Source: a virus. From it: 53,902 bases of DNA. The notes beneath the pieces are model-generated. The model worked only from the letters and a program-made list of their open reading frames with translations. It was not told the origin of the DNA and ran no database searches. Shown in pieces: positions 31,658-49,370 of this stretch; position 1 is the stretch's first letter; each line of letters opens with the position of its first letter. Position numbers and translations under genes: made by a program. Location of the stretch: the IMG/VR virus record IMGVR_UViG_3300033463_000182, positions 1-53,902 of that record; one strand, given 5' to 3'.

Positions 31658-31878
31658 ACTTCCGCCCCCGCTTCCCGGCACCCGTCAACATAGGCTTTCA
31701 TCCGGCGGGCCAGCAGATTGCCGATGTCGTCAATCACCTTCTGCTCCGCTTCGCCCGCGTCGCCCTCCGCCTTGATGTACAGGGGCACAGCGGGCAGATA
31801 GTCCCCGGTTTTCGGGTCGCGCAGGGCGGTATATCCGATCTGGATATATTCTTCCTTCTTTTCCGCTGCCATGGTCAC
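31654..31878 (-). CDS. Hypothetical protein
   Basis: 74-aa ORF. Confidence 0.4.
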   Translation of the reverse strand: MTMAAEKKEEYIQIGYTALRDPKTGDYLPAVPLYIKAEGDAGEAEQKVIDDIGNLLARRMKAYVDGCREAGAEV

Positions 31879-32090
31879 ACCGCCACTTCTCCCTTTACAG
31901 GCTCAAAGAGATAACAAAGATCGTATTCCGGGAACATATTGACTTTGATTTTGACCGCTTCCGGCATCGTGAAATCCGTAATTCCACGGATTTTATTGTA
32001 GGCGGTCTTTTCCGTCGTCCCAATGAGCTGTGCCAGCGCCAAAGTGGAGATGTTTTTTACATCCATTGCCGTGATAAGATGGAGCAGCAC
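31875..32090 (-). CDS. Cro-like HTH regulator
   Basis: HTH ISTLALAQLIGTTEKTAYNKIRG. I prefer the GTG at 32088-32090 (AAAGGAGGA 6 nt upstream) because the promoter -10 abuts the upstream ATG. Confidence 0.55.
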   Translation of the reverse strand: MLLHLITAMDVKNISTLALAQLIGTTEKTAYNKIRGITDFTMPEAVKIKVNMFPEYDLCYLFEPVKGEVAV

Positions 32091-32111
32091 CCCTATTCCT
32101 CCTTTCCGAAA

Positions 32112-32188
32112 TACCGTTCTCGGTAACTCGCTTACCATGATATACCGGTTTCGGTAGCTTGTCAATACCTTTTTTACCTTTTTCGGTA
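32112..32188. promoter_or_regulatory. Three operator palindromes TACCG-N4-CGGTA
   Basis: taccgttctcggta 32112-32125, taccggtttcggta 32143-32156, tacctttttcggta 32175-32188; spacing 31 and 32 bp. Confidence 0.65.
32137..32165 (-). promoter_or_regulatory. Leftward (lytic/early) promoter
   Basis: Minus strand TTGACA (32160-32165), 17 nt, TATCAT (32137-32142); operator 2 lies in the spacer. Confidence 0.55.
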
Positions 32189-32197
32189 ATTTTTTTC

Positions 32198-32226
32198 TTG
32201 ACCTGGGAGGGGTAATATCCTATAAT
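32198..32226 (+). promoter_or_regulatory. Rightward (repressor/lysogeny) promoter
   Basis: TTGACC (32198-32203), 17 nt, TATAAT (32221-32226). Confidence 0.65.
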
Positions 32227-32248
32227 GGAATGGACAGGAGGGAAAACC

Positions 32249-32641
32249 ATGACCTTTTTAGAAAAATTGGACTGGCTGATGGAGCGTGAAAAGCTGAACA
32301 AGCACACGCTGGCCCAGCAAAGCGGCGTCCCGTACACAACGATTGTCGGCCTGTATGAGCGCGGCCCGGAAAACGCGCGCCTTTCTACGGTCAACAAGCT
32401 ATGTGCTTTCTTCGGCGTCCCTCTGGACTACCTGGCGCTGGATGAATACGAAAGGCCGGAGGATTTTACCCCAAACGGAAACACCGTCGCGCTGACATGC
32501 GCGACGGATCAGGAAACGGAGCTTGTTTCTCTGTTTCGGGGGTTATCTGCCGCCGCCCGTGAAACGGTGCTTACAACCGTGCGCGGCTTCGCCGGTAATC
32601 CTTCCATGCAAAAAGAAAGTACAAAATCCGAAACGGCATAA
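32249..32641 (+). CDS. cI-like XRE-family repressor (no S24 peptidase domain)
   Basis: MTFLEKLDWLMEREKLNKHTLAQQSGVPYTTIVGLYERG HTH. The ATG at 32249 lies downstream of the -10, with GGAGGG upstream. Confidence 0.75.
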   Translation: MTFLEKLDWLMEREKLNKHTLAQQSGVPYTTIVGLYERGPENARLSTVNKLCAFFGVPLDYLALDEYERPEDFTPNGNTVALTCATDQETELVSLFRGLSAAARETVLTTVRGFAGNPSMQKESTKSETA

Positions 32642-33260: not shown

Positions 33261-33372
33261 GAAATGCCCGCCCCGGTTTCCCAGGACGGGCCGCAAAATC
33301 AGCCAACACCACTTGTCCGATTTGCTATTTTATTATAGCGCGGAGAACGTGAAAAGTCAAGGAGTTTCGCGC

Positions 33373-34947
33373 ATGAAAGCTGTAATTTACGCACGCTATT
33401 CTTCCCACGGCCAGACGGAGCAATCCATCGAAGGACAGCTCCGCGATAATTACGCCTGGGCCAAGCAGCAGGGGATCACCGTCATAGCGGAATACATAGA
33501 CAGGGCCTTGACCGGCACCAAGGATCAGCGCCCGGATTTTCAGCGCATGATCGAGGACGCGGCCAAGCGTCAGTTTGAAATGGTTATCGTCTGGAAGCTG
33601 GACAGGTTTGCCCGCAACCGTTACGACAGCGCGATCTACAAGGCCAAGCTCAAGAAATACGGCGTCAAGGTGGTGTCCGTCAAGGAGAACATCACCGACA
33701 GCCCGGAGGGCATCATCCTGGAAGGGCTGCTGGAAAGCATGGCGGAGTATTACAGCGCCAACCTGTCACAGAATATCCGGCGCGGCCAGCGTGAGAGCAT
33801 GGCGAAGGGAACATACTGCGGCGGCCCTGTACCCTACGGCTACAAGGTGGCGAATAAGAAGCTCGTCATTGACGACAAGGCCGCAGAAGTGATCCGCTAT
33901 GTGTTTGACCAGTACGCCCAGGGCGTCCCCAAGAAAGAGATCATCGACGAATTGAACCGGCGCGGCGTCCGTGGAAAGACTGGCAAGCCGCTTTCCATCA
34001 CGGCATTTCAGCGCGCCTTGCCGAATCCTGCCTATGTCGGGCGCTTCACCTATAAGGGTGAAGTGATCCCCGGCCTTTCCGAGCGCATCATAGACGACGA
34101 CACTTTCCAGAAAGTGCAGGAGCGCTTGAAGCTCACCGCCCGCGCGCCTGCTGCGAACAAGGCAAAGGTGGAATATCTCTTGCAGGGGAAAGCCTACTGC
34201 GGCCATTGCGGTGCGCCCATGATCGGGGAATCTGGCCGGTCACGGAACGGGGAAACGTACAATTACTATGCTTGCGCGGACAAAAAGAAGAAGCATACCT
34301 GTAAGAAGAAGAACGAGCGCAAGGATTTTATCGAATGGTATATTGTCGAACAGACGATGCAGTATATCTTGACGCCCGCCCGCGCTGCCCGCGTCGCAAA
34401 GGCCGTCGTGCAGGAGTACAAAAAAGAGTTTTCCGATAGCCGCGTGGACGATCTGGACAAAGCCTTGAAGCAGATAGACCGCGAGCTGGACAAGCTGGTG
34501 GACGCCCTGGTGGACAGCCCCAAGGTAGCGCACAAGAAAATCTACGCCCGCATGGAAACGCTGGAAGCGCAGAAAGCGGAAATGGAAACAGACCTTGCCC
34601 GCCTGCGCATCGCCCAGGAAATCCAGCTCACCGAAACAGAAGTGCGCGCATGGCTAAAGAAATTCTGTACCGGCGATCCGCTGGATGAGGAATTTCGCAA
34701 GCGCATCATCGACGTGTTTATCAATGCCGTCTATCTCTACGACGATAAGCTCATTACCTTCTACAACATACGCGGCGGCAAACAGGTTTCCTATATCGAC
34801 CTTATCAATTCCGCCGACCTTCCCGCCCCGGAGTGTTCGGATTTGAAAGCGTATGCTCCACCAAACGCATCCAAATCCGAACCGCAATACGTCTTTGTAA
34901 ATGGCGTGTTCGGCTGCATCTTCCATAGGAAGAAGGACGAGGATTGA
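33373..34947 (+). CDS. Large serine recombinase (integrase)
   Basis: MKAVIYARYSSHGQ...SIEGQ resolvase catalytic domain, recombinase domain, a zinc-ribbon region (CGHCG...C..C) and a coiled coil. AAGGAG 9 nt upstream of ATG 33373. Confidence 0.9.
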   Translation: MKAVIYARYSSHGQTEQSIEGQLRDNYAWAKQQGITVIAEYIDRALTGTKDQRPDFQRMIEDAAKRQFEMVIVWKLDRFARNRYDSAIYKAKLKKYGVKVVSVKENITDSPEGIILEGLLESMAEYYSANLSQNIRRGQRESMAKGTYCGGPVPYGYKVANKKLVIDDKAAEVIRYVFDQYAQGVPKKEIIDELNRRGVRGKTGKPLSITAFQRALPNPAYVGRFTYKGEVIPGLSERIIDDDTFQKVQERLKLTARAPAANKAKVEYLLQGKAYCGHCGAPMIGESGRSRNGETYNYYACADKKKKHTCKKKNERKDFIEWYIVEQTMQYILTPARAARVAKAVVQEYKKEFSDSRVDDLDKALKQIDRELDKLVDALVDSPKVAHKKIYARMETLEAQKAEMETDLARLRIAQEIQLTETEVRAWLKKFCTGDPLDEEFRKRIIDVFINAVYLYDDKLITFYNIRGGKQVSYIDLINSADLPAPECSDLKAYAPPNASKSEPQYVFVNGVFGCIFHRKKDED

Positions 34948-35079: not shown

Positions 35080-35950
35080 AATTATCCGCGCGCGCGTGCG
35101 CGAGGGGCCTTTTCTGGCCTGCCCAGGTGAATGAAATTCATAAAAAAAATAAAAAAATTAGCCAAATGGTGGGCTCCCAGCGCCCGCGTAGGAGAAAAAT
35201 CACGCGCGCAGTACCTACACGCGCAAGCGGGCGGGCGCGCACACGGGCGGGCGGGCGCGAGCGCGCGACAGGCGCGTGTGCGGGGGCGCGAGGGCGCGCG
35301 CGTGAGGGCGCGCGTAGGGGCGCGCGTGAGGGCGCGGGGGCGTGAGGCGCGGACGCGGACGCGCAAGGGCGCAGGGGCGCGGGCGGATGCGGGCAGGCGT
35401 GGCGCGTTGCGCGGTAAAAGCAACCCCGGAGGGGTTGCATCCAGGGCGCGCGGGGCCGCGTGATGGCGCGGGCCGCCGGACGCGGGCGGCCAGGGGACGC
35501 AACGCGGGAACGCGGGCGGACGGGCCGAAACATAAAACGCGCGGCGCGGGGCGGACGGGGCCGGGACGGGGCAGGCCGTTCCCGCGTCCAGGATCGCCGC
35601 CGGACGGATCGCCCGCCGGGACGGTTTACAATTCCGGCCAGCGTCCAGGCAGCAGCCAGCTCCCCGCACGCGCGCCCGCGCAGGCCGCCGGGGCGACGTG
35701 TCCAGGGATCGCCGCCGGGGACGTTGCCAGGGATGCAGGCAGCAGCCCCCGCGCGCGTGGAGGCGTCCAGGGGCCGCCGGGGGCCGGATGCCAGGACGCC
35801 GCCGGGGGCCTATAACCGTTTGCGCCATTCGGGGCGGATCGTTCACCGTCGGGGCCGTCCATGTTTCCGCCGGACGGATCGCCGCCCGCGTCCAGGCGGG
35901 GCGGGCTGGATGCGCTCACGCATACACGCGGGAACATAAAACGCGCGTGC
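35080..35950. repeat. Extreme-GC non-coding repeat block
   Basis: 104 of 120 nt are G+C in 35221-35340 (counted). Contains (CG)n, GGGC repeats, about 12-bp tandem repeats and five GYGTCCAGG iterons. All six frames give Arg/Pro/Ala/Gly junk. Confidence 0.85.
35129..35160. other. AT-only island with an 11-nt palindrome inside the GC block
   Basis: ATGAAATTCAT (35131-35141) followed by A8-T-A7-TTA. Confidence 0.8.
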
Positions 35951-36009
35951 GCCCGTTACGGCCCGAAAAATTTTTTTACCCCCGTAGGGGGTACATGCCC
36001 CGAAAAACA

Positions 36010-36036
36010 GGCCCCTTCCCGCCGGGGCCGTTTTTT
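36010..36036 (+). terminator. Intrinsic terminator upstream of promoter P1
   Basis: GGCCCC-ttcccgcc-GGGGCC-g-TTTTTT. Confidence 0.65.
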
Positions 36037-36117
36037 GTGCTATGCTTTTCACGTCGGCGGGAAACACCGCCGGACGGCCCCGAAAAAATTTCCCGAAAAA
36101 AATTTTTTGAAAAGGGG

Positions 36118-36146
36118 TTGACAAACGGGGTACACCGTGATAATAT
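36118..36146 (+). promoter_or_regulatory. Promoter P1 of the accessory array
   Basis: TTGACA, 17 nt (aACGGGGTACACCGtga), TAATAT with an upstream TG; A/T-tract UP-like region 36080-36113. Confidence 0.7.
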
Positions 36147-36215
36147 GGGCACCGTGGACGGGGTACACCGAACACAACACAAGGCGAAAAAATCATTTTG
36201 AAGGAGGCCAACACC

Positions 36216-37112
36216 ATGAAAGACCTGTACACCGAAATTGCCAACGGCATCATTGAGCAGCTGGAAAAGGGGATCATCCCCTGGAAAAAGCCCTGGACGG
36301 GCGTTAATTCTGGCGCTATCTCCCACGCAACCGGCCGCGCCTATTCCCTGCTGAATCAGATGCTCCTCAACCGCCCCGGCGAATACATCACGTTCAATCA
36401 GTGCAAGCAGGAGGGCGGCATGGTCAAGAAGGGCGCGAAAAGTAAAATCGTCGTGTTCTGGAAAGTGCTCCAGCGTGAAAAGAAGGACGCCGCCGGGAAC
36501 GTGGTCACGAACGCCGACGGAAAGCCGGTCATTGAGGGGCTGCCCGTGTTGCGGTATTTCCAGGTGTTCCATATCGACGATTGCGACGGGATCGCGCCGA
36601 AATGGGATAAAAAGCTGCCCGCCGTTGCATCCCCCGACGAACACGCCGAAAGCATCTTGACTGATTATGTGCGCCGTGAGGGCATCCGCCTTGAGAACGT
36701 GATCGGGGATCGGGCGTATTATTCCCCGTCCAGGGATTATATTTGCCTGCCCCTGATGGAGCAATTCGATAGCACCGGCGAATATTACGGCACCGCTTTC
36801 CATGAGGCGACGCATAGCACCGGCCATGTAACGCGGCTGAATCGTTTTGAAAGCGGGATCGCCGCCGCCGCTTTCGGCTCCGAATCGTACAGCAAAGAGG
36901 AGCTTGTCGCGGAAATCGGCTCCGCCTGCATCCTGCACGAAATCGGCATGGAAACGCCGTCCACGTTCAAAAATTCCGCCGCCTATATTCAGTCCTGGCT
37001 CCGCGTTTTGAAGGACGACAAACGGATGATTATTTCCGCCGCCGCCCGCGCCGAAAAGGCTGTAAAACTGATTCTCAACATCACCGACGAAAAGCAGGCG
37101 GACGGGGAATAA
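36216..37112 (+). CDS. ardC: ArdC-type antirestriction protein (ssDNA-binding N-domain + zincin metalloprotease domain)
   Basis: IIEQLEKGIIPWKKPWTG...ITFNQCKQEGGMVKKGAK (ArdC-N) and YYGTAFHEATHSTGH...YSKEELVAEIG (HExxH peptidase domain). Confidence 0.85.
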   Translation: MKDLYTEIANGIIEQLEKGIIPWKKPWTGVNSGAISHATGRAYSLLNQMLLNRPGEYITFNQCKQEGGMVKKGAKSKIVVFWKVLQREKKDAAGNVVTNADGKPVIEGLPVLRYFQVFHIDDCDGIAPKWDKKLPAVASPDEHAESILTDYVRREGIRLENVIGDRAYYSPSRDYICLPLMEQFDSTGEYYGTAFHEATHSTGHVTRLNRFESGIAAAAFGSESYSKEELVAEIGSACILHEIGMETPSTFKNSAAYIQSWLRVLKDDKRMIISAAARAEKAVKLILNITDEKQADGE

Positions 37113-37140
37113 TCCCCGCCCCGCCCGCAACGCCCCGCAA

Positions 37141-37209
37141 CCATTCCGCCCGACGATGGCCCGCCGGTCACGGGCCGAAACGATCCCGCCGGGATCGTCG
37201 CGGAAAACC
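37141..37209 (+). repeat. Structured intergenic repeat, copy 1
   Basis: ccattccgcccgacgatGGCCCGccggtcaCGGGCCgaaACGATCCCGcCGGGATCGTcgcggaaaacc. Confidence 0.85.
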
Positions 37210-37246
37210 GCAACGAAACGAAATCATTTTGAAGGAGGCCAACACC

Positions 37247-37858
37247 ATGAAAACCGTTTACACCTTCACCGCGTCCAGCATCACCGTCAAGGGCAAGACT
37301 TTCCCCGCAGAATATTCTGTTACCCCGTCCGGCTCCGTTTTCGTGTTCGTCCAGCATGACGGCAAGCCCGAAAAAACGCGCATCCGTTTCAATCCCGATC
37401 ATCCCGAATACGCCGCCGCCCTGGCCGCCGCCCGCAACGAGCAGCCCGCCCCGGCCCCGGTTGCCGATCCTGCTCCCGCCGCCGATGAACGCCCCGAAAT
37501 CATTTCCCCCGCCGCCGTGGAAGAAACGCCCGCCGCCCCCGCTGCCGATCCTGCTCCCGCCGCCGATCCCGCGCCGGTTGTCAAGGCCGACGGAAAAGCG
37601 ACGCGCGGCCCCGTCCCGGAAAAAACCTTTATCGGGGAAAGCATCAAGGGCAAGGGCTGGAAAATCCTCTTTGACGGCGAAACAAGCCGCACACGGATCA
37701 TCTTTGAAAGCAAGCCGACGGACGCCGCCCGCGCCGCCCTGGAAAAAGCAGGATTCTTCTTTTCCGCCGGTATGAATAGCTGGAATAAAAAGCTCACTTT
37801 CAAGGCATACCGCGCCGCGCAAGCCCTGGCCGGTGAATTGTCCGCCCTGTACGCTTGA
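37247..37858 (+). CDS. Hypothetical protein with a central Pro/Ala-rich linker
   Basis: MKTVYTF... behind the conserved junction. Confidence 0.5.
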   Translation: MKTVYTFTASSITVKGKTFPAEYSVTPSGSVFVFVQHDGKPEKTRIRFNPDHPEYAAALAAARNEQPAPAPVADPAPAADERPEIISPAAVEETPAAPAADPAPAADPAPVVKADGKATRGPVPEKTFIGESIKGKGWKILFDGETSRTRIIFESKPTDAARAALEKAGFFFSAGMNSWNKKLTFKAYRAAQALAGELSALYA

Positions 37859-37861
37859 AAA

Positions 37862-37931
37862 CCATTCCGCCCGACGATGGCCCGCCGGTCACGGGCCGAA
37901 ACGATCCCCGCCGGGATCGTCGCGGAAAACC
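37862..37931 (+). repeat. Structured intergenic repeat, copy 2
   Basis: Identical to copy 1 except for one extra C. Confidence 0.85.
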
Positions 37932-37967
37932 AAACGCCGCAAAATCATTTTGAAGGAGGCCAACACC

Positions 37968-38867
37968 ATGAAATACAACGAGAAAACCGCCGCCGCCGTC
38001 GTCAATGCCCTTTTGCGGGCCGCCCGCAAGCTGCCCCGCGAGGGCCTGCACGACGCCTGGACGGACGAGCAGGGCCGCACTTGCGCGATGGATGGTTTTC
38101 GGGCCTATTGTCTGAACGCCGCCCCCGCCGGTATGCGGGAAACCTGGACTTGCCGCCCCGATCCGGCCCGCGCCGCCGCCCGCGCTGCCGCGAATAACAA
38201 CATTCTGGCTCATGTATTCGCCGCCCTGGACGCCGGAAAAGTGGTCGAAATGCCCGCGCCGGACGCCGACGCCGTGAAAACCTTTATCGCCGCCGAAAAG
38301 CAGCAGCCGACGCACAAGGGGATTTACGACCTGGGCACCGAATTTCCCGCCGTCAACATGAAGTATCTGTATGATATTATTCGCCTGTTCCCCGCCGCGA
38401 AATGGTATGTAAACGTCGATCCCTACGCCCGCATGGTTAGCCCGATTTTCATTGTAGCCGACGAGGGCCGCGCCTGCCTGCTGCCCGTCCGCGTGGATAG
38501 CAAGCCCTGGAAAGCGCCGGAAGCGCCCGCCGCGCCGGTTGAAAAGCCCGCCGCGACGCAACGCCCCGAAACCATTTCCGACGATAAAGCCCCCTGGACG
38601 TATGATTACTTTGTTTATTCCCGGCCCGCCGGTGAAAAGCGTTTCCTCTTGACGAATCTCCGCGAGGGCACCGTGGGCATGAAAAGGTTTTATGCCCCGC
38701 GCTATAAGAAGCAGGACGCCGAGAAGATTATGGAAATGCTGGACGCCGTGGCCGCCGATAATCCCGGCTGCATCTTCCAGTTGCGAAAACTGGACGGGAA
38801 AACGGTTGTATATACCGCCGTCCCGACGGTGACGCCGGAACAGTTTGCCGCAAGCATCGCCGCCTGA
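37968..38867 (+). CDS. Hypothetical protein with a beta-clamp (DnaN domain)-like segment
   Basis: FPAVNMKYLYDIIRLF...SPIFIVADEGRACLLPVRV resembles the C-terminal DnaN signature (fN.kYl.D.l ... lMP.R). Confidence 0.3.
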   Translation: MKYNEKTAAAVVNALLRAARKLPREGLHDAWTDEQGRTCAMDGFRAYCLNAAPAGMRETWTCRPDPARAAARAAANNNILAHVFAALDAGKVVEMPAPDADAVKTFIAAEKQQPTHKGIYDLGTEFPAVNMKYLYDIIRLFPAAKWYVNVDPYARMVSPIFIVADEGRACLLPVRVDSKPWKAPEAPAAPVEKPAATQRPETISDDKAPWTYDYFVYSRPAGEKRFLLTNLREGTVGMKRFYAPRYKKQDAEKIMEMLDAVAADNPGCIFQLRKLDGKTVVYTAVPTVTPEQFAASIAA

Positions 38868-38919
38868 TTATTCCAGCGCCCGCCCGTGGGCCTTGTACGC
38901 GGGCAGGAGGGCCGCCGCT

Positions 38920-39312
38920 ATGAAGTATTGGTATTTATATATCCCCGCCGCCGTGTTCTTCCTGCTGCCCATTCTGAACGCCCTGCACGCATCCGCAAAG
39001 GAGCGCGCCGCTGCCCGCGAAAAGGAAGCAAAACGCGCCGCTGCTGCCGCCGCGAAAAAGGCCGCAAAGGAAGCGCAGGCCCCCGCCACCGCTGCCCCTG
39101 CCGCCGATCCGGCCCCCGCGCCAGCTCCCCGCAAGCGTGGACGGCCCCGCAAGAATCCGCCGCCGGAGCCGCAACGCCCCGCAACCATTTCAAACGATCC
39201 AGCGCCCGCCCCCGTCCAGGTTGTGACGATCCAGCGCGCCAGCATTTTCCCGGATATAAACAAGATGGAGCCGCCCTGCTCCCCGGAAGAATTTGCCGCC
39301 CGCATCCGCTGA
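38920..39312 (+). CDS. Membrane-anchored protein with an AT-hook (RKRGRPRKNP)
   Basis: MKYWYLYIPAAVFFLLPILNAL TM helix, then an Ala/Lys/Pro-rich region containing GRP. Confidence 0.45.
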   Translation: MKYWYLYIPAAVFFLLPILNALHASAKERAAAREKEAKRAAAAAAKKAAKEAQAPATAAPAADPAPAPAPRKRGRPRKNPPPEPQRPATISNDPAPAPVQVVTIQRASIFPDINKMEPPCSPEEFAARIR

Positions 39313-39344
39313 AAATTTCCCCGAAAAAATTTTGCAAAGGGGGC

Positions 39345-39373
39345 TTGACAAACGGGGTACACCGTGATAATAT
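39345..39373 (+). promoter_or_regulatory. Promoter P2 of the accessory array
   Basis: Same TTGACA-aACGGGGTACACCGtga-TAATAT as P1; a second TTGACAAACGGGGTACACCGT copy sits at 39378-39398. Confidence 0.7.
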
Positions 39374-39422
39374 GGCATTGACAAACGGGGTACACCGTAA
39401 CAAACAGAAGGAGGCCAACACC

Positions 39423-39968
39423 ATGAGTTACAACACATTGAAAGCCATCGACGCCGAAGCCATTGAAACCGCGCGCAAAAAGGCCCTTGCGGATATTGGC
39501 AAGGAGCGCCGCGAGGCCGCCGCCCTGCGCATCATGGCCGACAAGCTGAACGGCCAGTACATCACAAAGCGCATTGAGCCGCAGCTTGTGAGCCTGTTTC
39601 CCGGAGCCGTCCGCGCCTATATGAGCCAGTCTTATGACCATGTGGATGTTACCATTTCTTACAGCGCCAGCAATTACAATGACCGGGATTATCTCACCAT
39701 TTGCAGCACCAGCAACCGCCGCATTGACCCCGCCGCCATGATCGCCCGCGCGGAGCAGAAGGAAAAGGAAGCGCGCTCCCTGGAAGCGGCCTTGGAGCAC
39801 ATCGAGCCTCTTGTGGACGCTTACAACGCGATAGCGATTCACTTTGCCGAAATCCGCGACGATGTAGAGCGCTTTTTCCCCGAAATCCCCTATGCAGATT
39901 GGGGGCTTGAAAGAAAATACCGCGCCAGCTTTACCCCGGAACGGTTTGCCGAAATCATTTCAGCGTAA
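39423..39968 (+). CDS. Hypothetical protein
   Basis: MSYNTLKAIDAE... behind GGAGGCCAACACC. Confidence 0.5.
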   Translation: MSYNTLKAIDAEAIETARKKALADIGKERREAAALRIMADKLNGQYITKRIEPQLVSLFPGAVRAYMSQSYDHVDVTISYSASNYNDRDYLTICSTSNRRIDPAAMIARAEQKEKEARSLEAALEHIEPLVDAYNAIAIHFAEIRDDVERFFPEIPYADWGLERKYRASFTPERFAEIISA

Positions 39969-40001
39969 CGCCGCAAAATCATTTTGAAGGAGGCCAGCAC
40001 C

Positions 40002-40709
40002 ATGAAAACCCCGTACAATACCCCCATTGAAAAAAGCTCCGTCAACCCCATGTGCCCCGATTGCACCCGCTTTGGGAAGGATTGCGAGGGGACGGCCTGC
40101 CAGACCTGGACGGGCTGCATTTACAAGCAGCGCACCGATCCGGCGGAAACCATTTGCAAGCCGAAGCTGATCTATCAGCCGGACGCCCCGAAGGAGGCCC
40201 GCTATAACGTCCAGTTGTGGCATAGCTACGACGGCGGCAAGACCTTCTATTATGCCGGTTATGGTCGCTTCTTTGAAAACCAGTATGATGCCGAAGCGTG
40301 GCGCAAGCAGCAGCGGAAAAATCTTGCTTACGATCTCATGTTTGGCCGCCTGGGCAACGGGACGACGGTTTTCAACCTGGCCCGCGAGGAGTACGGCGAT
40401 TATCAGAATGTCGCCCACATCGACGATTGCGGCGCTGTGCGGTGGTATGTCGATACCAGCAAGCTCCCGCCCTACGTCCTGGAAGATGTCAACGCGCAGG
40501 CCGCCGCGCAGGAGCGCAATTTCAAACACGGCTTTATGCACCTTCCGAAGCCCGACGCCCTTCAAATGCTGGGCGACCTTCTGAACATCGGGCAATTCCT
40601 GATCGTGTTCCGCGATGAGAATATTGCGGACAAGAGCATGGAGGAAATCTATCAAGCCTATATCAAGTATGTGTGCAAGAACGGCAAGCGCACCATGCCC
40701 GCAGCATAA
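40002..40709 (+). CDS. Hypothetical protein with an N-terminal Cys cluster
   Basis: MKTPYNTPIEKSSVNPMCPDCTRFGKDCEGTACQ... Confidence 0.5.
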   Translation: MKTPYNTPIEKSSVNPMCPDCTRFGKDCEGTACQTWTGCIYKQRTDPAETICKPKLIYQPDAPKEARYNVQLWHSYDGGKTFYYAGYGRFFENQYDAEAWRKQQRKNLAYDLMFGRLGNGTTVFNLAREEYGDYQNVAHIDDCGAVRWYVDTSKLPPYVLEDVNAQAAAQERNFKHGFMHLPKPDALQMLGDLLNIGQFLIVFRDENIADKSMEEIYQAYIKYVCKNGKRTMPAA

Positions 40710-40719
40710 CGCCGCAAAA

Positions 40720-40789
40720 CCATTCCGCCTGATGATGGCCCGCCGGTTACGGGCCGAAACGATCCCCGCCGGGATCGTCGCGGAAAACC
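40720..40789 (+). repeat. Structured intergenic repeat, copy 3
   Basis: Three C-to-T changes relative to copies 1 and 2: one gives a G-U pair in the outer stem, one is in the bulge, one is in a loop. Confidence 0.85.
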
Positions 40790-40824
40790 AACGCCGCAAG
40801 ATTATTTCAAAGGAGGCCAACACC

Positions 40825-41304
40825 ATGACCATCAACAAAACCCGGTATTCATCTTTCAACTACAAGCGCCTCGCGCCCTTCCTGGACGCCGTGCGCGAGC
40901 TGCCGGAGCAGTCCTTCACCTTCACCCACGAGGGCTACGAGCCGCTTTCTATCGAAAGCCTGGGCTATACCTTCAAGGGCTATCCCGTTTGGGGTATGAT
41001 GCACACCTACCAGCAGAACGGCGACACCATGCGCGACCCGGATATGACCTTCCTGGTGGATCGTGAAACCGGCAACATCATCCCGCACACCTTCCAGCAG
41101 GATAATTGCCCCTTCACGAAGTACGGCACCCTGTATCAAGAAGTATGGGAGGACGAAACGCATTGGCGGCCCAGCCTGCGCGCCGAGCTTGACCGCTTCT
41201 TGAAAGACTGGATCACAAACATTCTGGATCAGGGCTTTTCCCCGGATCAGGCCCGCGCCGGTGAAGTCACCCCGGAACAGTTTGCCGCCGCCGTCGAAGG
41301 ATAA
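40825..41304 (+). CDS. Hypothetical protein
   Basis: MTINKTRYSSFNYKRL... behind the conserved junction. Confidence 0.5.
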   Translation: MTINKTRYSSFNYKRLAPFLDAVRELPEQSFTFTHEGYEPLSIESLGYTFKGYPVWGMMHTYQQNGDTMRDPDMTFLVDRETGNIIPHTFQQDNCPFTKYGTLYQEVWEDETHWRPSLRAELDRFLKDWITNILDQGFSPDQARAGEVTPEQFAAAVEG

Positions 41305-41337
41305 CGCCGCGAAATCATTTTGAAAGGAGTTTTGACT

Positions 41338-41553
41338 ATGGCATACGATAGCATCCGCCGTCTGTTGAAAGACGGCTATCCCTGGAAGATCAAGGGCAAC
41401 GATGGATATACCGCCGTATTGGTGGGCATCCAGCCCCTTGTCGATCACGATTATTGCGGCATCTACCGCTACCCCGGCGGCGAGTGCTGCCACGGTTTGC
41501 AGGAAATCAGATCATGCTTCACCGTCCTGGAGCAGCGCCCGCCGGAAGATTGA
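41338..41553 (+). CDS. Hypothetical small protein
   Basis: MAYDSIRRLLKDGYPW... Confidence 0.45.
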   Translation: MAYDSIRRLLKDGYPWKIKGNDGYTAVLVGIQPLVDHDYCGIYRYPGGECCHGLQEIRSCFTVLEQRPPED

Positions 41554-41599
41554 TAATAAGCCCGCCCGTGGGCATATACACGGGAGAAGGAGGTACACC

Positions 41600-41845
41600 A
41601 TGAAAAGCATCACATTCAAAACAAACGTCGCCGCCCCCGGCGCGGCATCCGCTGACATCGTGGACGAGCTGCCGGAGATTGGCGACACCTTCCATGGGCG
41701 AACAGTCCTTGAGGTTTGTCCTTTTCCCCTGGTGGACGAGCAGGACGATCCAGAAGTGTATCAATTCGCCGTCTGGAAGCTGCACCTGTCCGGGGATGTA
41801 TATTACTACGTCGCCATCCACGAAGCCGAAGCGGAGAAAATCTAA
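41600..41845 (+). CDS. Hypothetical small protein
   Basis: MKSITFKTNV... behind GAAGGAGGTACACC. Confidence 0.45.
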   Translation: MKSITFKTNVAAPGAASADIVDELPEIGDTFHGRTVLEVCPFPLVDEQDDPEVYQFAVWKLHLSGDVYYYVAIHEAEAEKI

Positions 41846-41878
41846 CGCCGCGAAATCATTTTGAAAGGAGCCAACACC

Positions 41879-42082
41879 ATGAAAGCCAACACCACTTTGC
41901 AGAAGATCACGAAGTCCATCCGCCGCTTCTTTGTCGGCGAAGCGTACACAGTCGCCGCGTGCGTGCCCGGTTACGGCACGTTCACCTGTACCATCACGGC
42001 CCCGAACCAGCAGCGCGCTATGGAGGAAGCGGAAGCAATGGCAGACCCCGGCTTTGTCCTGTCCTGCGAATTGGCCGCCTGA
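41879..42082 (+). CDS. Hypothetical small protein
   Basis: MKANTTLQKITK... behind the conserved junction. Confidence 0.45.
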   Translation: MKANTTLQKITKSIRRFFVGEAYTVAACVPGYGTFTCTITAPNQQRAMEEAEAMADPGFVLSCELAA

Positions 42083-42105
42083 CGCTGCCGATCCCTCCGC
42101 GCGCG

Positions 42106-42134
42106 TTGACAAACGGGGTACACTAATATATAAT
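42106..42134 (+). promoter_or_regulatory. Promoter P3 (consensus TTGACA-17-TATAAT)
   Basis: TTGACA 42106-42111; the spacer starts aACGGGGTACACt; TATAAT 42129-42134. Confidence 0.75.
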
Positions 42135-42164
42135 ATGGGCATTGATCGAAAGGAGGCCAGCACC

Positions 42165-42371
42165 ATGCCGCGAGGAACCACACCCGAACAGCGACGCGCG
42201 AAAAACATTCTCGGTGAAAGGTGGGACAGGGAAAACACCCGTCAAGTCAAGTTCAAGTTCAACCTCCGCACCGATGCGGATATACTCGCCCATCTGGACG
42301 CCCAGCAGAACGTCCAGGGCTATGTGAAAAGGCTGATCCGGGACGATATAGCCCGCACCAGCAAAGGATAG
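42165..42371 (+). CDS. Ribbon-helix-helix (CopG/Arc-like) DNA-binding protein
   Basis: VKFKFNLRTDADILAHLDAQQNVQGYVKRLIRDDI fits a strand-helix-helix pattern. Confidence 0.5.
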   Translation: MPRGTTPEQRRAKNILGERWDRENTRQVKFKFNLRTDADILAHLDAQQNVQGYVKRLIRDDIARTSKG

Positions 42372-42390
42372 CAAATTGGAGGCCAACGCC

Positions 42391-42627
42391 ATGAGAAAGT
42401 ATTTTGTGAACGTGATCGCCGATGTTATTCCCGGTGATAGCCCCTATCAACAGACGACCATCGCAGCGTATCACGTCGAGGCAGATACCGAAAGGCACGC
42501 TGCCGACGCCGCCATTGCCGAATTGATAAAGAACAACCGCGCAATCGACACCATGACAATCAAGCACACGGCGGTTTATCCCGTTGATGAAATGCCGCTT
42601 CTGGTATATCATCCGAAGGAAGCATAA
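42391..42627 (+). CDS. Hypothetical small acidic protein
   Basis: MRKYFVNVIADV...; last gene before the terminator. Confidence 0.45.
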   Translation: MRKYFVNVIADVIPGDSPYQQTTIAAYHVEADTERHAADAAIAELIKNNRAIDTMTIKHTAVYPVDEMPLLVYHPKEA

Positions 42628-42645
42628 CGCGCCACGATCATTCTT

Positions 42646-42683
42646 AACGTGCATCTTTCCCGTAAAGGTGCACGTTATTTTTG
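42646..42683 (+). terminator. Intrinsic terminator ending the accessory array
   Basis: AACGTGCA...TGCACGTT stem (inner CTTT/AAAG pairs) followed by ATTTTTG. Confidence 0.7.
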
Positions 42684-43102: not shown

Positions 43103-43869
43103 TCATAAATCGAATAGACTGATCTGGTTCATTTCCGCGTCCAGCCGTTCCTTTGCGGCCCTATAATACTCCGGGTCGATCTCAAAGCCCACAAATTCCA
43201 GCCCCGCGCGGCGGCAGGCTATCAGGCTGCTTGCGCTCCCGCAATGCGTGTCCAGTATCTTGTCCCCTTCCTTGGCGTACCGGGACAGGAGCCATTGATA
43301 CAGCTTGACCGGCTTCTGTGTCGGGTGGAATCGCTTTTCCCTTGCCGATCCCTGCGGCATACACTCAAACAGCTTCGCGTTGTCGTTGAAGCTCGTCCAG
43401 GCGTATTCGCACATCGCCATGGTGAAATTCTCGCTGATGGTCAGTTTCCGCCACACGATAAAACACCGCGTCGGCGGCAGGCGAAAGTAATTCCCGCCCC
43501 AAATGATTTGATTTTTGCTGACGCGGGCCAGCTCCTTGAAATAATCCTCGCCGGGGGCCACGTCCCAATGCTTGATGTTTGCGCTGCTAAAGAGGCCCCC
43601 TGGCTTGTATTTCTGAAAGTACCCTCCGCCCGTCCGGGCCGCCTTGATCGTCGTTTGCAAAGTGATACTGCCGGAATCGTCCGCCGAAGCGTCCGTTTTT
43701 ATGTTTCTCCCAATCAGTACCCCCCCCCCGCCAGGTTTCCGGCGTCTGCATCCTCGGCCCGTCCGCCGCCTCCGTAGGGCGGATCGACGATTGCCAGGTC
43801 AAAATACTTGTCGGGAAATTCCTTCATCCCCTCCATGCAATCCATGTTGTAGAATCCGGGATCAAGCAT
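43103..43869 (-). pseudogene. N6-adenine/N4-cytosine DNA methyltransferase interrupted by a frameshift at a G10 tract (phase-variable, recoded or a homopolymer error)
   Basis: The ATG at 43867-43869 gives MLDPGFYNMDCMEGMKEFPDKYFDLAIVDPPYGGG...LAGGGY-stop. The frame reached by one extra G continues ...NQIIWGGNYF...FHPTQKPVKLYQWLL...DTHCGSASS... to 43103. Confidence 0.75.
43720..43729 (-). repeat. G10 homopolymer (C10 on the + strand)
   Basis: Counted directly: c at 43720 plus nine c at 43721-43729. Confidence 0.9.
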
Positions 43870-44476
43870 TTCCCTTCACCCGCTTTCCGGCCAGCATATT
43901 GAATTTCATAAGGCTTTCGTCGATGTTCTCCTGGATCACGCCGATATATACCAGCGTTTCCCGCTGGTAGCTGTGGCAGAGAATCCTTTGCAGGCTCACC
44001 ACGTCGCCGGTCATTTTGTAGTAATGATACCCAAACGTCTTGCGCAGCGTATGGCATCCGATCCTGTCCTCTATGCCCGCTTCCTTGGCAATCTCGTTGA
44101 TGATCTGATAGCACCGCTGCCGCGTAATGGGCCGGTATTTGTGCGTCGCCGCGTCCTTTTGGCGGCTCTGGAAGATATACTCGTCCGACTTTCTTCCCGC
44201 CAGCAGGCGGTTGATTTCCCGCCGCGCCTGGGGGTTTATCAGGATGCGGGCCTCCTTCCCGGTTTTCTTGGCCTGTATCTGCGCATAGTCCTTCCCCTTG
44301 AGGTCTGCCACCTTGAAGCGCCGAAAGTCGCTCACGCGCAGGCTGGTATTAAATCCCACGAGCAAGATCAATTCCCAGCATACTTCCCCGGTCTTTCGGT
44401 TCTTATCGTGATCCCGCGCAATCTCATAGCACTTTTGCAGCACGTCCAGATCGCGGATGGGCTGTACCACCTTCAT
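43862..44476 (-). CDS. Small tyrosine recombinase (catalytic domain only)
   Basis: 204 aa. LRVSD (Arg I), HTLRKTF (His-x-x-Arg), HSYQRETLVYIG (His...Tyr). Confidence 0.75.
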   Translation of the reverse strand: MKVVQPIRDLDVLQKCYEIARDHDKNRKTGEVCWELILLVGFNTSLRVSDFRRFKVADLKGKDYAQIQAKKTGKEARILINPQARREINRLLAGRKSDEYIFQSRQKDAATHKYRPITRQRCYQIINEIAKEAGIEDRIGCHTLRKTFGYHYYKMTGDVVSLQRILCHSYQRETLVYIGVIQENIDESLMKFNMLAGKRVKGNA

Positions 44477-46943: not shown

Positions 46944-47036
46944 TTACCTCCCATTGGCATAGATGAGCGCCGCAAGGATCATGCCAAAAAGGGCCGATGC
47001 GGGAACAATCCAAACCAGGTGCCATGCAGAAATCAT
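46944..47036 (-). CDS. 30-aa single-TM peptide (not in the ORF track)
   Basis: GGAGGTG RBS. The ATG overlaps the RT stop (ATGA). MISAWHLVWIVPASALFGMILAALIYANGR. Confidence 0.35.
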   Translation of the reverse strand: MISAWHLVWIVPASALFGMILAALIYANGR

Positions 47037-48400
47037 AAATAAATCACCTCCGCGCTTTCCAGCCAGTCGCCATAGTGCATCCGTATGTGTTCTTCAAGGC
47101 TTCCGCCCCATTGAGGATCTTTTGGGTCGATCCCGCGCACCGAAAGCACGCGGATGTCAAAGTCCATTCGTCCCGTCAGGTCGTCGTAGGCCGGAACAGC
47201 CTCGCCCGGTGTCAGCCAAATATCCACAAGGCCGTCCTCCGCCTCGACGATTCTATAAAAATGCCGCCTGTTCCCCGGCGGCTGATCGCTCGCGTTATTC
47301 ATGTTTTCGCACCTTTGCAGTACAAAGTGTTCCTCGATCCAGCGCAGCATATTGTAGCCGTTACAATGCTTGCACATGCCGATGTAGCAGATCACGCTTT
47401 CCATCGCCGCGTCATAGCTGATCGCCCCGTAGGCGAAAGCGCTCATAACGTGTTTCAGCGCCCGCTTGATATGCCGCGTTGTTTTCTTCCTCATGCGGAT
47501 GCCGTGTGGCGTCAGCAGATACCCCACAAACTCCACCGGGGCCGTCGCTTTCTGGATGCGGCTTTTGGGGCTGATGTCAAGCGCCAGCTCGTCCCGCAGG
47601 AAAGCGCTCACGGTGGCGAATACCCGCCGCGCTTCTTCCTTGCCTTTCACAAGGATGCAGAAATCGTCCATGTAGCGCACATAGAAATGGAGCCGCAGGA
47701 CGTGTTTGCAGTATTTGTCCAGCTTGTCCAGGAACAGGTTGGCCGTTTCCTGGCTGGTCAGGTTGCCGATGGGCATACCTACATCGTACAGCCGCAGGGC
47801 GCGCGGGCAATCGTCCGGCCTCATTCCCGGCGGCAGGCCAAAGGGCACGTCCGGGTTGTTGATGATAACGCCCATGAGCCAGCGATACCATTGATCGTCG
47901 CTGGTTTCGTCGTAGCTCTGCAACACCTTCCCGTGATCCACGCGGTAAAAGTATTTGCTGATGTCGCCCTTTATCAGATACCAGTCGTCCGCGTCCGGCT
48001 TCCGGCTGATAAGCTGCTGCCAGCTTTGCAGGCACTCCGCCGCCGCCAGCGTGCCCTTGTCGCGCCTGCATCCGTAGCTGTGTTCGATATAGCGCTTGTC
48101 AAGATAGGGGTTGATCTGCCGGTAGATGGCCCATTGCACCACGCGATCCCGGAAGCCCAGCGCCATGACCAGGCGCGGCTTCGGATAGCGTACATAAAAT
48201 TCTCTGTACGGGCCGACCTTATAGGTCATTTCACGTAATTCCTTCTGTATCTGGAGCAGATTTTCGCCCAGGTTGAAGGTGAAATCCAAAACCTCGTTGC
48301 GATACCGCTTGCTCTTTGCGGCGTCACGGTATGCGCCCATCAGGTTTTCAAAGTCGCAGATGCGGTCTTTCAGATTGTGCAGCCCTTCCAAAATGTTCAC
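47033..48400 (-). CDS. DGR reverse transcriptase with an extra C-terminal domain of roughly 100 aa
   Basis: IGNLTSQ (DGR-type motif 4) and YVRYMDD (motif 5); lies downstream of TR. Confidence 0.9.
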   Translation of the reverse strand: MNILEGLHNLKDRICDFENLMGAYRDAAKSKRYRNEVLDFTFNLGENLLQIQKELREMTYKVGPYREFYVRYPKPRLVMALGFRDRVVQWAIYRQINPYLDKRYIEHSYGCRRDKGTLAAAECLQSWQQLISRKPDADDWYLIKGDISKYFYRVDHGKVLQSYDETSDDQWYRWLMGVIINNPDVPFGLPPGMRPDDCPRALRLYDVGMPIGNLTSQETANLFLDKLDKYCKHVLRLHFYVRYMDDFCILVKGKEEARRVFATVSAFLRDELALDISPKSRIQKATAPVEFVGYLLTPHGIRMRKKTTRHIKRALKHVMSAFAYGAISYDAAMESVICYIGMCKHCNGYNMLRWIEEHFVLQRCENMNNASDQPPGNRRHFYRIVEAEDGLVDIWLTPGEAVPAYDDLTGRMDFDIRVLSVRGIDPKDPQWGGSLEEHIRMHYGDWLESAEVIYL

Positions 48401-48449
48401 CCCGCCCTGCGTGGGCCGCGCGTGATGTTTCCATGCGGCTTTGACTGTA

Positions 48450-48473
48450 ATACCCTAAAAGGCTTTAGGGTAT
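48450..48473 (-). other. Perfect 10-bp hairpin in the TR-RT spacer
   Basis: ataccctaaa-aggc-tttagggtat. Confidence 0.7.
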
Positions 48474-48664
48474 GCTGCTGACAGCCTCGGCCTTTCGTCC
48501 TCCCGGACGCTTCGCGGCGATTCCCGCGCCGCCTTTTCCCCCGGAGCGTTCTTGCCGGAGCAGCACGGGATTTTTGTTTAGGCGGTTTTCACCGCCACGG
48601 AAACGCACCCCTCCCATCAGAAGGATGGCCGCTGATTCGTGATCTCGCGGCGCGTGATGTATGC

Positions 48665-48785
48665 TGGGAGCGCGGGCGGCAGCCATAGTTGTTGTTCGCA
48701 TTGCCGCGCTCGTTGTTGGAGTTGACATACCCCAAGCCCGCGTTGGAGCCGTTGTTGTAGTTGCCGCCGCGACGCGGGAAGCGCT
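48665..48785 (-). repeat. DGR template repeat (TR)
   Basis: 121 nt, collinear with VR at an offset of 710 nt. All 18-19 mismatches are at TR adenines (T on the + strand). Sense translation: RGGNYNNGSNAGLGYVNSNNERGNANNNYGCRPRS. Confidence 0.9.
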
Positions 48786-48816
48786 AACGAACGCATGGCG
48801 ATCCAGGCCGTCCAAT

Positions 48817-49239: not shown

Positions 49240-49264
49240 ACCGTTTCACCTTATCAGAACATCA

Positions 49265-49302
49265 TCACGCGCGCGTGACCGATTCTATTCACGCGCGCGT
49301 GA
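49265..49302. promoter_or_regulatory. Two identical 14-bp palindromes TCACGCGCGCGTGA upstream of avd
   Basis: 49265-49278 and 49289-49302, 24 bp centre to centre. Confidence 0.6.
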
Positions 49303-49314
49303 TGGAGAGGGACG

Positions 49315-49339
49315 GGGGCGCGCCCTACCGGGCGGCCCC
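49315..49339 (-). other. GC hairpin downstream of VR (DGR target-recognition element candidate)
   Basis: 10 bp with one bulge and a 4-nt loop (tacc on the + strand), 35 nt beyond the VR end. Confidence 0.6.
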
Positions 49340-49370
49340 ATCAGGGATTCAGTTTTCAGTCGTCAGGGGT

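Follow-up and report, generated by a model that had tools for sequence, protein, structure and literature searches.

Organization of the array

The IMG/VR virus record IMGVR_UViG_3300033463_000182 was analysed as a single stretch of 53,902 nucleotides, here called the window, and the analysis was centred on an array of 12 open reading frames (ORFs) that lies on the plus strand at 36216-42627 and is headed by a gene for an ArdC-type antirestriction protein. Similar short sequences recur at the gene boundaries of this array, and they are retained in related arrays with other gene content. The run of 12 ORFs, confirmed by ORF calls on the window, had been described in an earlier reading made from the letters alone (the sequence-only reading) as the only long plus-strand block; the run stands, whereas the start of the block has to be moved upstream, to a cI-like gene (32225) and a serine integrase gene (33349-34947). 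On all-versus-all BLASTP comparison the 12 array proteins were mutually unrelated and matched each other only in low-complexity linkers and tails, as had been claimed, so that the array is not a tandem duplication of paralogous genes. Two independent assemblies reproduce the array with 100% identity, over 15.2 kb in one and 14.7 kb in the other.

The boundaries are composed of recurring modules. H is AACGCCSCRAAATCATTT, placed directly after the stop codon of the upstream gene; J is a strong Shine-Dalgarno sequence (SD) GAAGGAGG followed by the invariant spacer CCAACACC and ATG (often ATGAAA); E is a hairpin element, K an alternative junction and P a promoter. In the list below, 'tail' refers to a C-terminal peptide motif common to several cassettes.

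36216-37112, plus strand: ORF1, ArdC, with an ArdC-N domain (binding single-stranded DNA) and a zincin MPTase-PolyVal domain
37247-37858, plus strand: ORF2, a small N-domain, a Pro/Ala linker with an in-frame H copy (37487-37506, ERPEIIS) and a DUF3560-like C-domain
37968-38867, plus strand: ORF3, a beta-clamp-like N-domain (residues 1-187) fused to a small C-domain (209-299), tail TPEQFAASIAA
38920-39312, plus strand: ORF4, an N-terminal membrane helix, a basic Ala/Lys-rich region, an in-frame H copy (39172-39191), tail SPEEFAARIR
39423-39968, plus strand: ORF5 cassette, tail TPERFAEIISA
40002-40709, plus strand: ORF6, a Cys-rich N half and a C half
40825-41304, plus strand: ORF7, DUF6908 (6e-26), tail TPEQFAAAVEG
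41338-41553, plus strand: ORF8, short form
41600-41845, plus strand: ORF9
41879-42082, plus strand: ORF10, a conserved small cassette
42165-42371, plus strand: ORF11, the array gene with the widest conservation, a candidate repressor of Aca type (Aca, anti-CRISPR-associated)
42391-42627, plus strand: ORF12, a cassette present or absent among relatives

Start-site junctions

A repeat search on the window returned a 55-nt junction family with eight copies, and the string AAATCATTTTGAAGGAGGCCAACACCATG was found in five copies at ≤3 mismatches against 0.00 expected. H together with the SD was present at seven array starts and the SD-spacer GGAGGCCAACACC-ATG at nine. According to the sequence-only reading, ten of the twelve ATGs were preceded by a nearly identical string; the repetition proved non-random, whereas the count was too generous. 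The full string occurs at five starts only (36216, 37247, 37968, 40002 and 41879), a variant (AAGATTATTTCAAAGGAGG) at 40825 and H plus SD with a different spacer at 41338, while starts 39423, 42165 and 42391 have 16-18 nt of SD-spacer alone in common. The TAA stop codon of the preceding gene adjoins the junction string at the three sites noted earlier (39966, 41302 and 41843) and also at 40707. Where the junction is tight, the TAA is in frame with H, the SD and the ATG, and 33 nt separate the stop from the start. The junctions that carry no promoter are listed here.

36190-36218, plus strand: junction before ArdC, partial H, SD, spacer and ATG, formed by deletion of a gene (X0) between two J copies
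37130-37249, plus strand: H, E (83 nt), H' and J, before ORF2
37851-37970, plus strand: E copy 2, H and J, before ORF3
38868-38919, plus strand: K-type junction, before ORF4
39966-40004, plus strand: tight junction TAA-H-SD-spacer-ATG, in frame, 33 nt
40707-40827, plus strand: H, E copy 3, a position-specific H variant (AAGATTATTTC) and J, before ORF7
41302-41340, plus strand: tight junction, H and SD with divergent spacer
41554-41599, plus strand: K-type junction copy 2, before ORF9
41843-41881, plus strand: tight junction, before ORF10

Folding of the junction RNA gave dG values of -0.9 to -3.4 kcal/mol with z-scores of +0.8 and +1.2, and the junctions are therefore less structured than shuffled controls. 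The 11-nt palindrome AAAATCATTTT that had been noted beside the SD has no stable fold and was rejected as a hairpin or operator. Outside the array the SD-spacer was found at five minus-strand genes (23471, an exact copy, 25140, 26820, 30115 and 50746); all its copies in the window lie in the array or at small genes of 22.7-30.1 kb and 50.6-50.7 kb, and the large genes of 1-20 kb, the annotated terminase gene included, have none. It also occurs singly in unrelated viral contigs.

The E element measures 83 nt, is present three times (37130, 37851 and 40709) and folds into a three-way junction with two GC hairpins. It has no U-tract and is therefore not an obvious terminator. Its stems were invariant in 16 distinct copies, and covariation support is lacking because the stems never vary; changes fall in unpaired and loop stretches, save one stem change that yields a G-U pair. 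The K junction consists of a hairpin (GCCCGCCCGTGGGC..GCGGGC) followed by the SD and precedes ORF4 and ORF9, the two ORFs without the main junction. An Rfam scan of 35.0-43.2 kb returned one sub-threshold chance match only. Roles of E and K at the RNA level are conceivable.

Promoters and the candidate regulator

That the array has its own promoters was borne out by sigma70-like sites at 36118, 39345 and 42106:

36085-36169, plus strand: P1, an A/T tract, -35 TTGACA at 36118, TG-extended -10 TAATAT at 36141; operator-like ACGGGGTACACC at 36125 (in the spacer) and 36158
39312-39425, plus strand: P2, TTGACAAACGGGGTACAC at 39345, a second copy at 39378, then an SD-spacer junction
42106-42167, plus strand: P3, operator-like ACGGGGTACACT, then an SD-spacer junction

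The sites at 36118 and 39345 score 10/12 plus TG against the consensus and that at 42106 scores 12/12; P1-P3 account for three of the eight sites with ≥10/12 in the whole 54 kb. The promoter is thus present as four copies at three sites for 12 genes, and most junctions are stop-H-SD-ATG without a promoter. All are canonical double-stranded sigma70 sites, the sole promoter type looked for. The ACGGGGTACACC repeat lies within the spacer of every array promoter, and at P1 once more downstream. It is absent from the cI/cro switch of the phage, so that the array seems to be under separate control, and control by CI was rejected on this ground. In the divergent relatives L010 and L024 a different repeat (GGTTCAACCGAC / GTCGGTTGAACC) takes the place of ACGGGGTACACC at the promoters (in L010 at 1470-1540), as expected for regulator-specific operators.

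ORF11 is the most widespread array gene (58 clusters), has its own 12/12 promoter and is the most likely candidate for a dedicated regulator of the array promoters. A published precedent exists in Aca14, a protein of the ribbon-helix-helix (RHH) type that represses several neighbouring anti-defence operons (PMC13551039). ORF11 looks like a beta-alpha-alpha protein, a pattern that no profile supports. Its assignment as RHH was not confirmed by profile searches or by hhalign, which gave a probability of 0.2% against a hand-typed Arc sequence.

Conservation of the junctions

Syntenic alignments were used to compare intergenic and coding columns. In the first block (five genomes) 89% of intergenic columns were invariant against 70% of third codon positions, and in the second block 82% against 59%, so that intergenic columns are conserved at the level of codon positions 1 and 2. 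A stretch of 52 nt, running from the AA of the stop codon through the junction to the first 13 nt of ORF10, was invariant in nine genomes beside divergent ORF9 alleles. The 16-nt SD-spacer-ATG was essentially invariant in 47 distinct copies ahead of many different genes, a figure that is partly so by construction because the copies were collected at ≤3 mismatches. The SD-spacer is kept also in L010, which is presumably heteroimmune and has a different promoter repeat. The junctions are under purifying selection, with conservation above that of synonymous sites.

Related arrays

Related arrays (given L-numbers) were gathered by exact-string scans and protein look-ups. In about 25 such arrays, from rumen metagenomes, the junctions are retained while cassette content and order vary, as the sequence-only reading had proposed should be looked for, and the majority of breakpoints fall within the repeats. 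Cassette maps were drawn for more than 20 arrays and vary in both respects; examples are given below, with P for promoter, E for the hairpin element, X for a gene absent from the window and numbers for window ORFs.

Window: P-1-E-2-E-3-4-PP-5-6-E-7-8-9-10-P-11-12
L005: P-X0-1-X1-E-P-2-E-3-4-P-5-6-E-7-X8-9-10-P-11
L009: like L005, minus 5, with other alleles of 8 and 9
L014: P-6-E-3-4-P-2-E-7...
L036: ...4-[265 aa]-X6b-5-7-9-10
L038: ...4-6C-5-7-[81]-[44]-[104]-9-10-11-[78]-[70]

Several events could be read from these maps. The window has lost X0 by recombination between two J copies, and L007, whose ArdC is 97% identical, keeps P-J-X0-J-ArdC; the array had been called ArdC-led, which is right for the window and not for the original state, since ArdC stands first only because the small upstream gene was deleted. 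Recombination between two H copies removed X1, recombination between two J copies removed ORF5, and X6b was inserted between H and E. ORF5 is missing from L009, L011 and L012 and is placed elsewhere in L036 and L038. ORF2 and ORF6 are swapped between L014 and L009 despite 96-97% identity, and all four breakpoints (4/4) of this swap fall within P/H/J or E/H/J repeats of 105-125 nt. The C half of ORF6 stands alone in L002 and L038. ORF8 is represented in relatives by a 125-aa form with an extra C-domain or by a different gene of 106 aa. ORF9 has two alleles with 42% amino acid identity whose divergence ends exactly at the stop codon and junction, and this ORF9/ORF10 allele boundary is common to seven contigs. 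L043 to L050 encode an identical ORF11 protein, yet differ in ORFs 5/6, 8, 9 and 12, and ORF12 is present or absent among near-identical genomes. Several array variants recur across independent samples and assemblers.

In the more distant arrays L020, L022, L024 and L036-L039, H, J, K and E are all retained, slightly altered. The cultured Faecalibacterium phage FP_Toutatis (NC_047915.1; L040) has an analogous run of 13 small genes in one orientation at 13.3-23.5 kb; these have a looser start sequence in common (..CACGAAA..GGAGC..CGAACCATG), and a hairpin resembling E (CCCCGCCGGGGGATCGTCACGAAA) is present as well. The gene that carries the label 'primase' in this phage might be related to the ORF2 family.

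In-frame fusions and the common tail

Copies of H in the reading frame (CAACGCCCCGAAAYCATTTC) were found inside ORF2 (37487), ORF3 (38559) and ORF4 (39172); the string has six matches in the window against 0.01 expected. The clearest case is ORF3, whose N-domain is a separate gene of 204-207 aa in L022 and L024: the L022 gene ends CAG TAA CGCCCCGAAACCATTCC, where window ORF3 reads ACG CAA CGCCCCGAAACCATTTCC. In the AlphaFold2 (AF2) model of ORF3 (pLDDT 85) two domains are split by a disordered stretch at residues 188-208, which corresponds to the H copy (38559-38578), and the C-domain exists as a stand-alone 62-aa gene in FP_Toutatis and matches phrog_35407. In L010 a different N-domain is joined to a DUF3560-like domain via the same ERPEIIS linker. 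Three states of the junction were thus seen: a stop before H; a stop after H, in one ORF of L020 (..EQRRETI*); and no stop, in L022 (4700-5290), where an ORF11 homologue without a stop codon reads through an intact H-J into a homologue of the anti-CRISPR (Acr) protein AcrIC5, with the downstream start site of this regulator-Acr fusion still intact. These comparisons show that cassettes have fused at junctions, the H remnant forming the linker in ORF2, ORF3 and ORF4.

The tail is encoded by CCGGAACAGTTTGCCGC (peptide [ST]PExFA) at the C-termini of ORF3, 4, 5 and 7 (38835-38851, 39283-39299, 39936-39952 and 41272-41288), with four matches against 0.33 expected. In the longer form [ST]PExF[AIL]xx[IVL]xx it stands at the extreme C-terminus of at least ten unrelated cassette families across the related arrays, and it was present at 4/82 array ORF ends against 0/638 elsewhere in the window. 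Its codon pattern suggests selection at the peptide level by a 3-periodicity test, which is partly circular because the tails were picked with a peptide regular expression.

Anti-defence content

ORF1 was confirmed as an ArdC-type antirestriction protein with a zincin domain by Pfam (ArdcN 1.5e-24, MPTase-PolyVal 5.4e-37) and by phrog_7245 (anti-restriction); ArdC function has been described (PMC7213743). Contrary to the earlier statement, it is not the only recognisable ORF: ORF7 is a DUF6908 protein, the C-terminus of ORF2 is DUF3560-like and the N-domain of ORF3 has a beta-clamp-like fold. The DUF3560 relative of ORF2 is encoded on a segment of an F-type plasmid that also contains traM, traI and genes for antirestriction and a methylase. 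The ORF3 N-domain resembles the DnaN clamp in its AF2 model (Foldseek probability 0.99, E = 3e-3) and has a weak match to phrog_947; going by the model, it (37968-38530) could be a clamp mimic or decoy. For the AF2 model of ORF7 (pLDDT 87) Foldseek gave no credible match in PDB or BFVD. PDB sequence searches with ORF2, 3, 5, 6, 7, 10 and 12 returned no matches, and ORF12 had no match at all in database searches.

In L022 a 64-aa cassette that follows the ORF11 homologue at the array end is a full-length AcrIC5 homologue (PDB 7yhr, E = 2.2e-9); AcrIC5 orthologues are known in Firmicutes (PMC7913775). No AcrIC5 homologue or known Acr was found in the window. ORF12 occupies the slot of the AcrIC5 homologue and is an anti-CRISPR candidate by position only. 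The earlier proposal of an anti-defence island gains support from ArdC in the window and from AcrIC5 at the ORF12 position in this sister array; the remaining cassettes may be regarded as anti-defence candidates only.

Nucleotide searches of the array against GenBank phages and PLSDB plasmids found nothing beyond a 57-nt ArdC patch, and no avoidance of restriction sites (palindromes) was detected in the array.

Interpretation

With a probability of roughly 0.62, the array is an anti-defence or establishment island in which modular regulatory junctions drive strong early expression and at the same time provide portable homology for cassette shuffling and fusion. It would consist of unrelated small genes strung on portable modules, namely J, H, the optional E, the alternative K, and P. 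On entry, host RNA polymerase would fire P1-P3, and the unstructured, A/U-rich junctions with their strong SD would give uniformly high, coupled translation of all cassettes. A regulator, most likely ORF11, would then bind the ACGGGGTACAC repeats and shut the promoters in an Aca-like manner. The modules recur every 0.2-1 kb in direct orientation and are common to co-circulating phages, and they therefore act as recombination homology; comparison of the arrays shows the resulting deletion, insertion, replacement and re-ordering of cassettes. It also shows that, since one frame runs from the stop through H and J to the ATG, neighbouring cassettes are fused when the stop is lost, and that the H remnant becomes a flexible (Q)RPE(I/T)IS linker, as in ORF2, ORF3 and ORF4.

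Several points weigh against this interpretation. No window ORF except ArdC matches a known anti-defence family, and ORF11 had no RHH or helix-turn-helix (HTH) profile match in Pfam, NCBIfam or PDB profile searches. The fold of E had no significant z-scores and no covariation support. Not all breakpoints lie in repeats: the large deletion in L001 and the loss of the ORF8 C-domain break in coding sequence, and the left breakpoint of the ORF12 replacement is the ORF11 stop codon. The relatives are all short-read metagenome assemblies with repeats of 105-125 nt, so that mis-joins are possible and an isolated rearrangement, for instance the swap in L014, could have arisen in assembly. That the promoters are active, act early and are repressed is inferred. 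The likeness of the junctions could also be maintained by nothing more than strong selection for translation, and recombination would then be a by-product.

The last point is in substance the strongest rival, in which the junctions are an optimised translation-initiation region and nothing else (strong SD, C/A-rich spacer, A/U-rich leader, ATGAAA) and recombination is an unselected side effect. It accommodates the SD-spacer copies at the five genes outside the array and in unrelated contigs, the unstructured junction RNA and the position-specific H variants, for example AAGATTATTTC in front of ORF7, which in every genome stay with the gene that follows them; adaptation of translational efficiency has likewise been found in plasmid leading regions (PMC13478746). 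It leaves unaccounted for the fixed attachment of H to the stop codon, the persistence of H as an in-frame linker without an SD, the near-invariance of E, and a spacer of 8 nt that has no 16S complementarity and is invariant over the 47 copies. This rival overlaps the island model rather than excluding it, and computation alone cannot separate the two; as an account on its own it is considered unlikely.

Less probable still, and speculative, is an extension that may be called a 'gene zipper', by which in-frame junctions would let cassettes switch reversibly between separate cistrons and fused multi-domain effectors. The (Q)RPE(I/T)IS linker and the tail would then be functional peptide signals, which could be cleavage or docking sites for the ArdC zincin or could dock one common host or virion partner, and the array would be a polyvalent protein in the midst of assembly or disassembly.

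In another rival, judged improbable, H and/or J would be the target of a phage or host RNA-binding repressor or endoribonuclease that switches off or processes the early cistrons, and E would be a processing or stabilising hairpin. Such systems are exemplified by RegA and RegB of phage T4 and by the RNase III sites of the T7 early region. The fixed orientation of the motif, its fixed distance to the start codon, its conservation above synonymous sites and the restriction of E changes to unpaired and loop stretches (apart from the one that gives a G-U pair) would all suit an RNA target. They have to be set against the lack of any candidate RNA-binding protein or nuclease among the array proteins, of an Rfam family match and of covariation; in-frame H copies would moreover be targets within ORFs too.

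That the shuffling is an artefact, whether from assembler mis-joins at repeats or from recent tandem duplication of paralogues, is highly improbable. The repeats are near short-read length and the L014 breakpoints all lie in them, but the array proteins are not paralogous, the window order is identical in the two independent assemblies, the ORF9/ORF10 allele boundary is common to the seven contigs, and lineages at 50-80% identity carry different cassettes, which is beyond what mis-assembly creates; an artefact is also unlikely because variants are replicated across samples and assemblers. Equally far down is a model of H repeats as DNA sites of a repressor, similar to the 'stoperators' of cluster A mycobacteriophages, that silence read-through transcription in lysogens: the sites are asymmetric, in one orientation and at gene boundaries, and the array lies beside the lysogeny module, but H is unrelated both to the operator-like repeat of P1-P3 and to the cI/cro intergenic repeats, is fixed to stop codon and SD rather than merely intergenic, and is kept in L010 despite the different promoter repeats of that presumably heteroimmune phage. 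Unlike H, the intergenic repeats of stoperator arrays have the sequence of the repressor operator at the early promoter.

Comparison with known systems

Two published systems come closest: in T4-type phages the PeSL 'mobile regulatory cassettes' (Arbiol et al. 2010, PMC2839356; Comeau et al. 2014, PMC4122927), and in cluster K mycobacteriophages the start-associated sequences (SAS, with an extended form, ESAS; Pope et al. 2011, PMC3203893). PeSLs combine a stop codon, an A/T tract, a sigma70 early promoter, a stem-loop, an SD and a start codon (PMC2839356; PMC4122927). Like the junctions described here, they are repeated composite intergenic motifs in plastic, ORFan-rich regions, they bound indels and replacements between related phages, and homologous recombination has been proposed to move regulatory signals along with genes. 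They have no sequence similarity to the present junctions, about 8 of 12 of which lack a promoter and whose constant part is translational (stop, H, SD, spacer, ATG). Further differences are that E has no U-tract and is not an obvious terminator, that the host is a small temperate Clostridia phage and not a T4-like myovirus, and that the junctions are in frame and have produced gene fusions.

SAS, for their part, are short asymmetric repeats with an SD core that stand 3-8 nt before (mostly ATG) starts in one orientation; they are limited to non-structural genes of different families, include conserved parts that cannot pair with 16S rRNA, have an extended upstream element at about half of the sites and are presumed to act in translation, in all of which they resemble the present motif. 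The SAS consensus is 5'-GGGATAGGAGCCC, whereas that found here is GAAGGAGGCCAACACC, and the host phylum or lineage is different. With 33-55 nt the motif of the array exceeds SAS in length, it is tied to the stop codon of the preceding gene, and comparative evidence of recombination and fusion was found here, with none reported for SAS. The array is a member of neither group; it unites features of the two, to which comes an in-frame layout that gives rise to fusions.

Resemblance to acr-aca operons lies in a strong promoter with a repeated motif, in a small regulator gene beside small variable genes and in the AcrIC5 homologue right behind the ORF11 homologue of the sister array. Unlike in those operons, ORF11 matches no known Aca family or DNA-binding profile, no known Acr is encoded in the window and the candidate regulator precedes the variable gene. 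Conjugative plasmids have leading regions (Samuel et al. 2024, PMC11541004; Shaw et al. 2026, PMC13478746) that likewise contain co-oriented small anti-defence genes, including ArdC-type antirestriction and DUF3560 proteins, with signs of selection for efficient early expression. The analogy drawn in the sequence-only reading holds for gene content only. The promoters found here, in a search for that type alone, are ordinary double-stranded sigma70 sites and not single-stranded DNA promoters (Frpo/ssi type). A leading region is the first DNA to reach the recipient and adjoins oriT and the relaxase gene; the array belongs to a phage without oriT or relaxase, and no conjugation genes lie in its context.

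Polyvalent proteins, known from phages and conjugative elements, most often have ArdC-N and MPTase as their core (Iyer et al. 2017, PMC5512222); their effector domains are variably combined, and the MPTase has been proposed to process the fusions (PMC5512222). ArdC of the window has only ArdC-N and MPTase, other domains are mostly separate cistrons, and fusions are limited to two or three parts (ORF2, ORF3 and ORF4) with junction-derived linkers. By analogy, the array looks like an unfused or partly fused counterpart of polyvalent proteins. In archaeal viruses, a conserved regulatory motif of early genes has been used to find anti-defence genes (PMC11065993). There too anti-defence candidates are recognised by a regulatory sequence that lies upstream of many early genes of unrelated kinds; the motif in that case is a promoter of archaeal type, and no role in recombination or fusion was described. 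An integron-like system was rejected: the neighbouring recombinase is of the large serine type, there is no IntI, and the junctions are direct repeats without attC-like structure.

Phage context

The surroundings of the array were annotated as follows.

31875-32165, divergent from the cI-like gene: cro-like gene
32225-32641, plus strand: cI-like HTH gene, upstream of the array
33349-34947, plus strand: large serine recombinase (integrase), upstream of the array
36010-36029, both directions: terminator-like bidirectional hairpin insulating the array entry
42625-42677, plus strand: H-like remnant (TAACGCGCCACGATCATTC) and exit terminator (42645-42677)

The two terminators had been predicted at entry and exit and were recovered at the positions listed. 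A lipoprotein-like gene also lies upstream on the same strand as the array, beside the cI-like and integrase genes. The cI/cro-like divergent switch (31875-32641) carries two 11/12 promoters and TTACCGAAA-type repeats. The stretch of about 0.9 kb between the integrase gene and the array (35080-36000) is GC-rich, lacks a convincing gene and abounds in GCGCGCG runs and in degenerate tandem repeats of 12 and 24 nt (GGCGCGCGTGAG); it could hold attP or something else.

Elsewhere in the window are genes for an endolysin, two DNA methyltransferases and a small tyrosine-recombinase-like protein, and a diversity-generating retroelement (DGR). The large terminase is about 47% identical to terminases of Roseburia and Faecalibacterium phages. 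Given terminase, endolysin, integrase and lysogeny genes, the element is a temperate phage of about 54 kb; relatives were found in metagenome-assembled genomes of rumen Clostridia and in rumen metagenomes, and the phage is a siphovirus-like one of rumen Clostridia. Beyond the array exit, an N6/N4 DNA methyltransferase gene (43103-43660, minus strand) and the tyrosine-recombinase-like gene (204 aa; 43862-44476, minus strand) are present in all relatives. The DGR (47033-50585, minus strand) comprises a reverse transcriptase gene (47033-48229), a bAvd-like gene (48817-49239) and a pair of 120 nt resembling template and variable repeats (48666-48785 versus 49376-49495, 85% identical), of which the variable copy sits at the 3' end of a 404-aa gene (49371-50585).

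Significance

One short string together with one promoter string retrieves variable early islands from rumen and gut Clostridia phages and can serve as a search handle in a host group for which almost no anti-defence genes are known. The islands contain some 40 small gene families beside ArdC and the AcrIC5 homologue, which are prioritised candidates against defences such as restriction-modification (RM) and type I-C CRISPR. For anaerobes that are hard to manipulate, expression parts could be made of the invariant start module and of the operator/regulator pair. Phage mosaicism via conserved boundary sequences now has nucleotide-level support outside T4-like phages, and the arrays suggest how an operon can give rise to polyvalent effectors, namely when an in-frame junction loses its stop codon.

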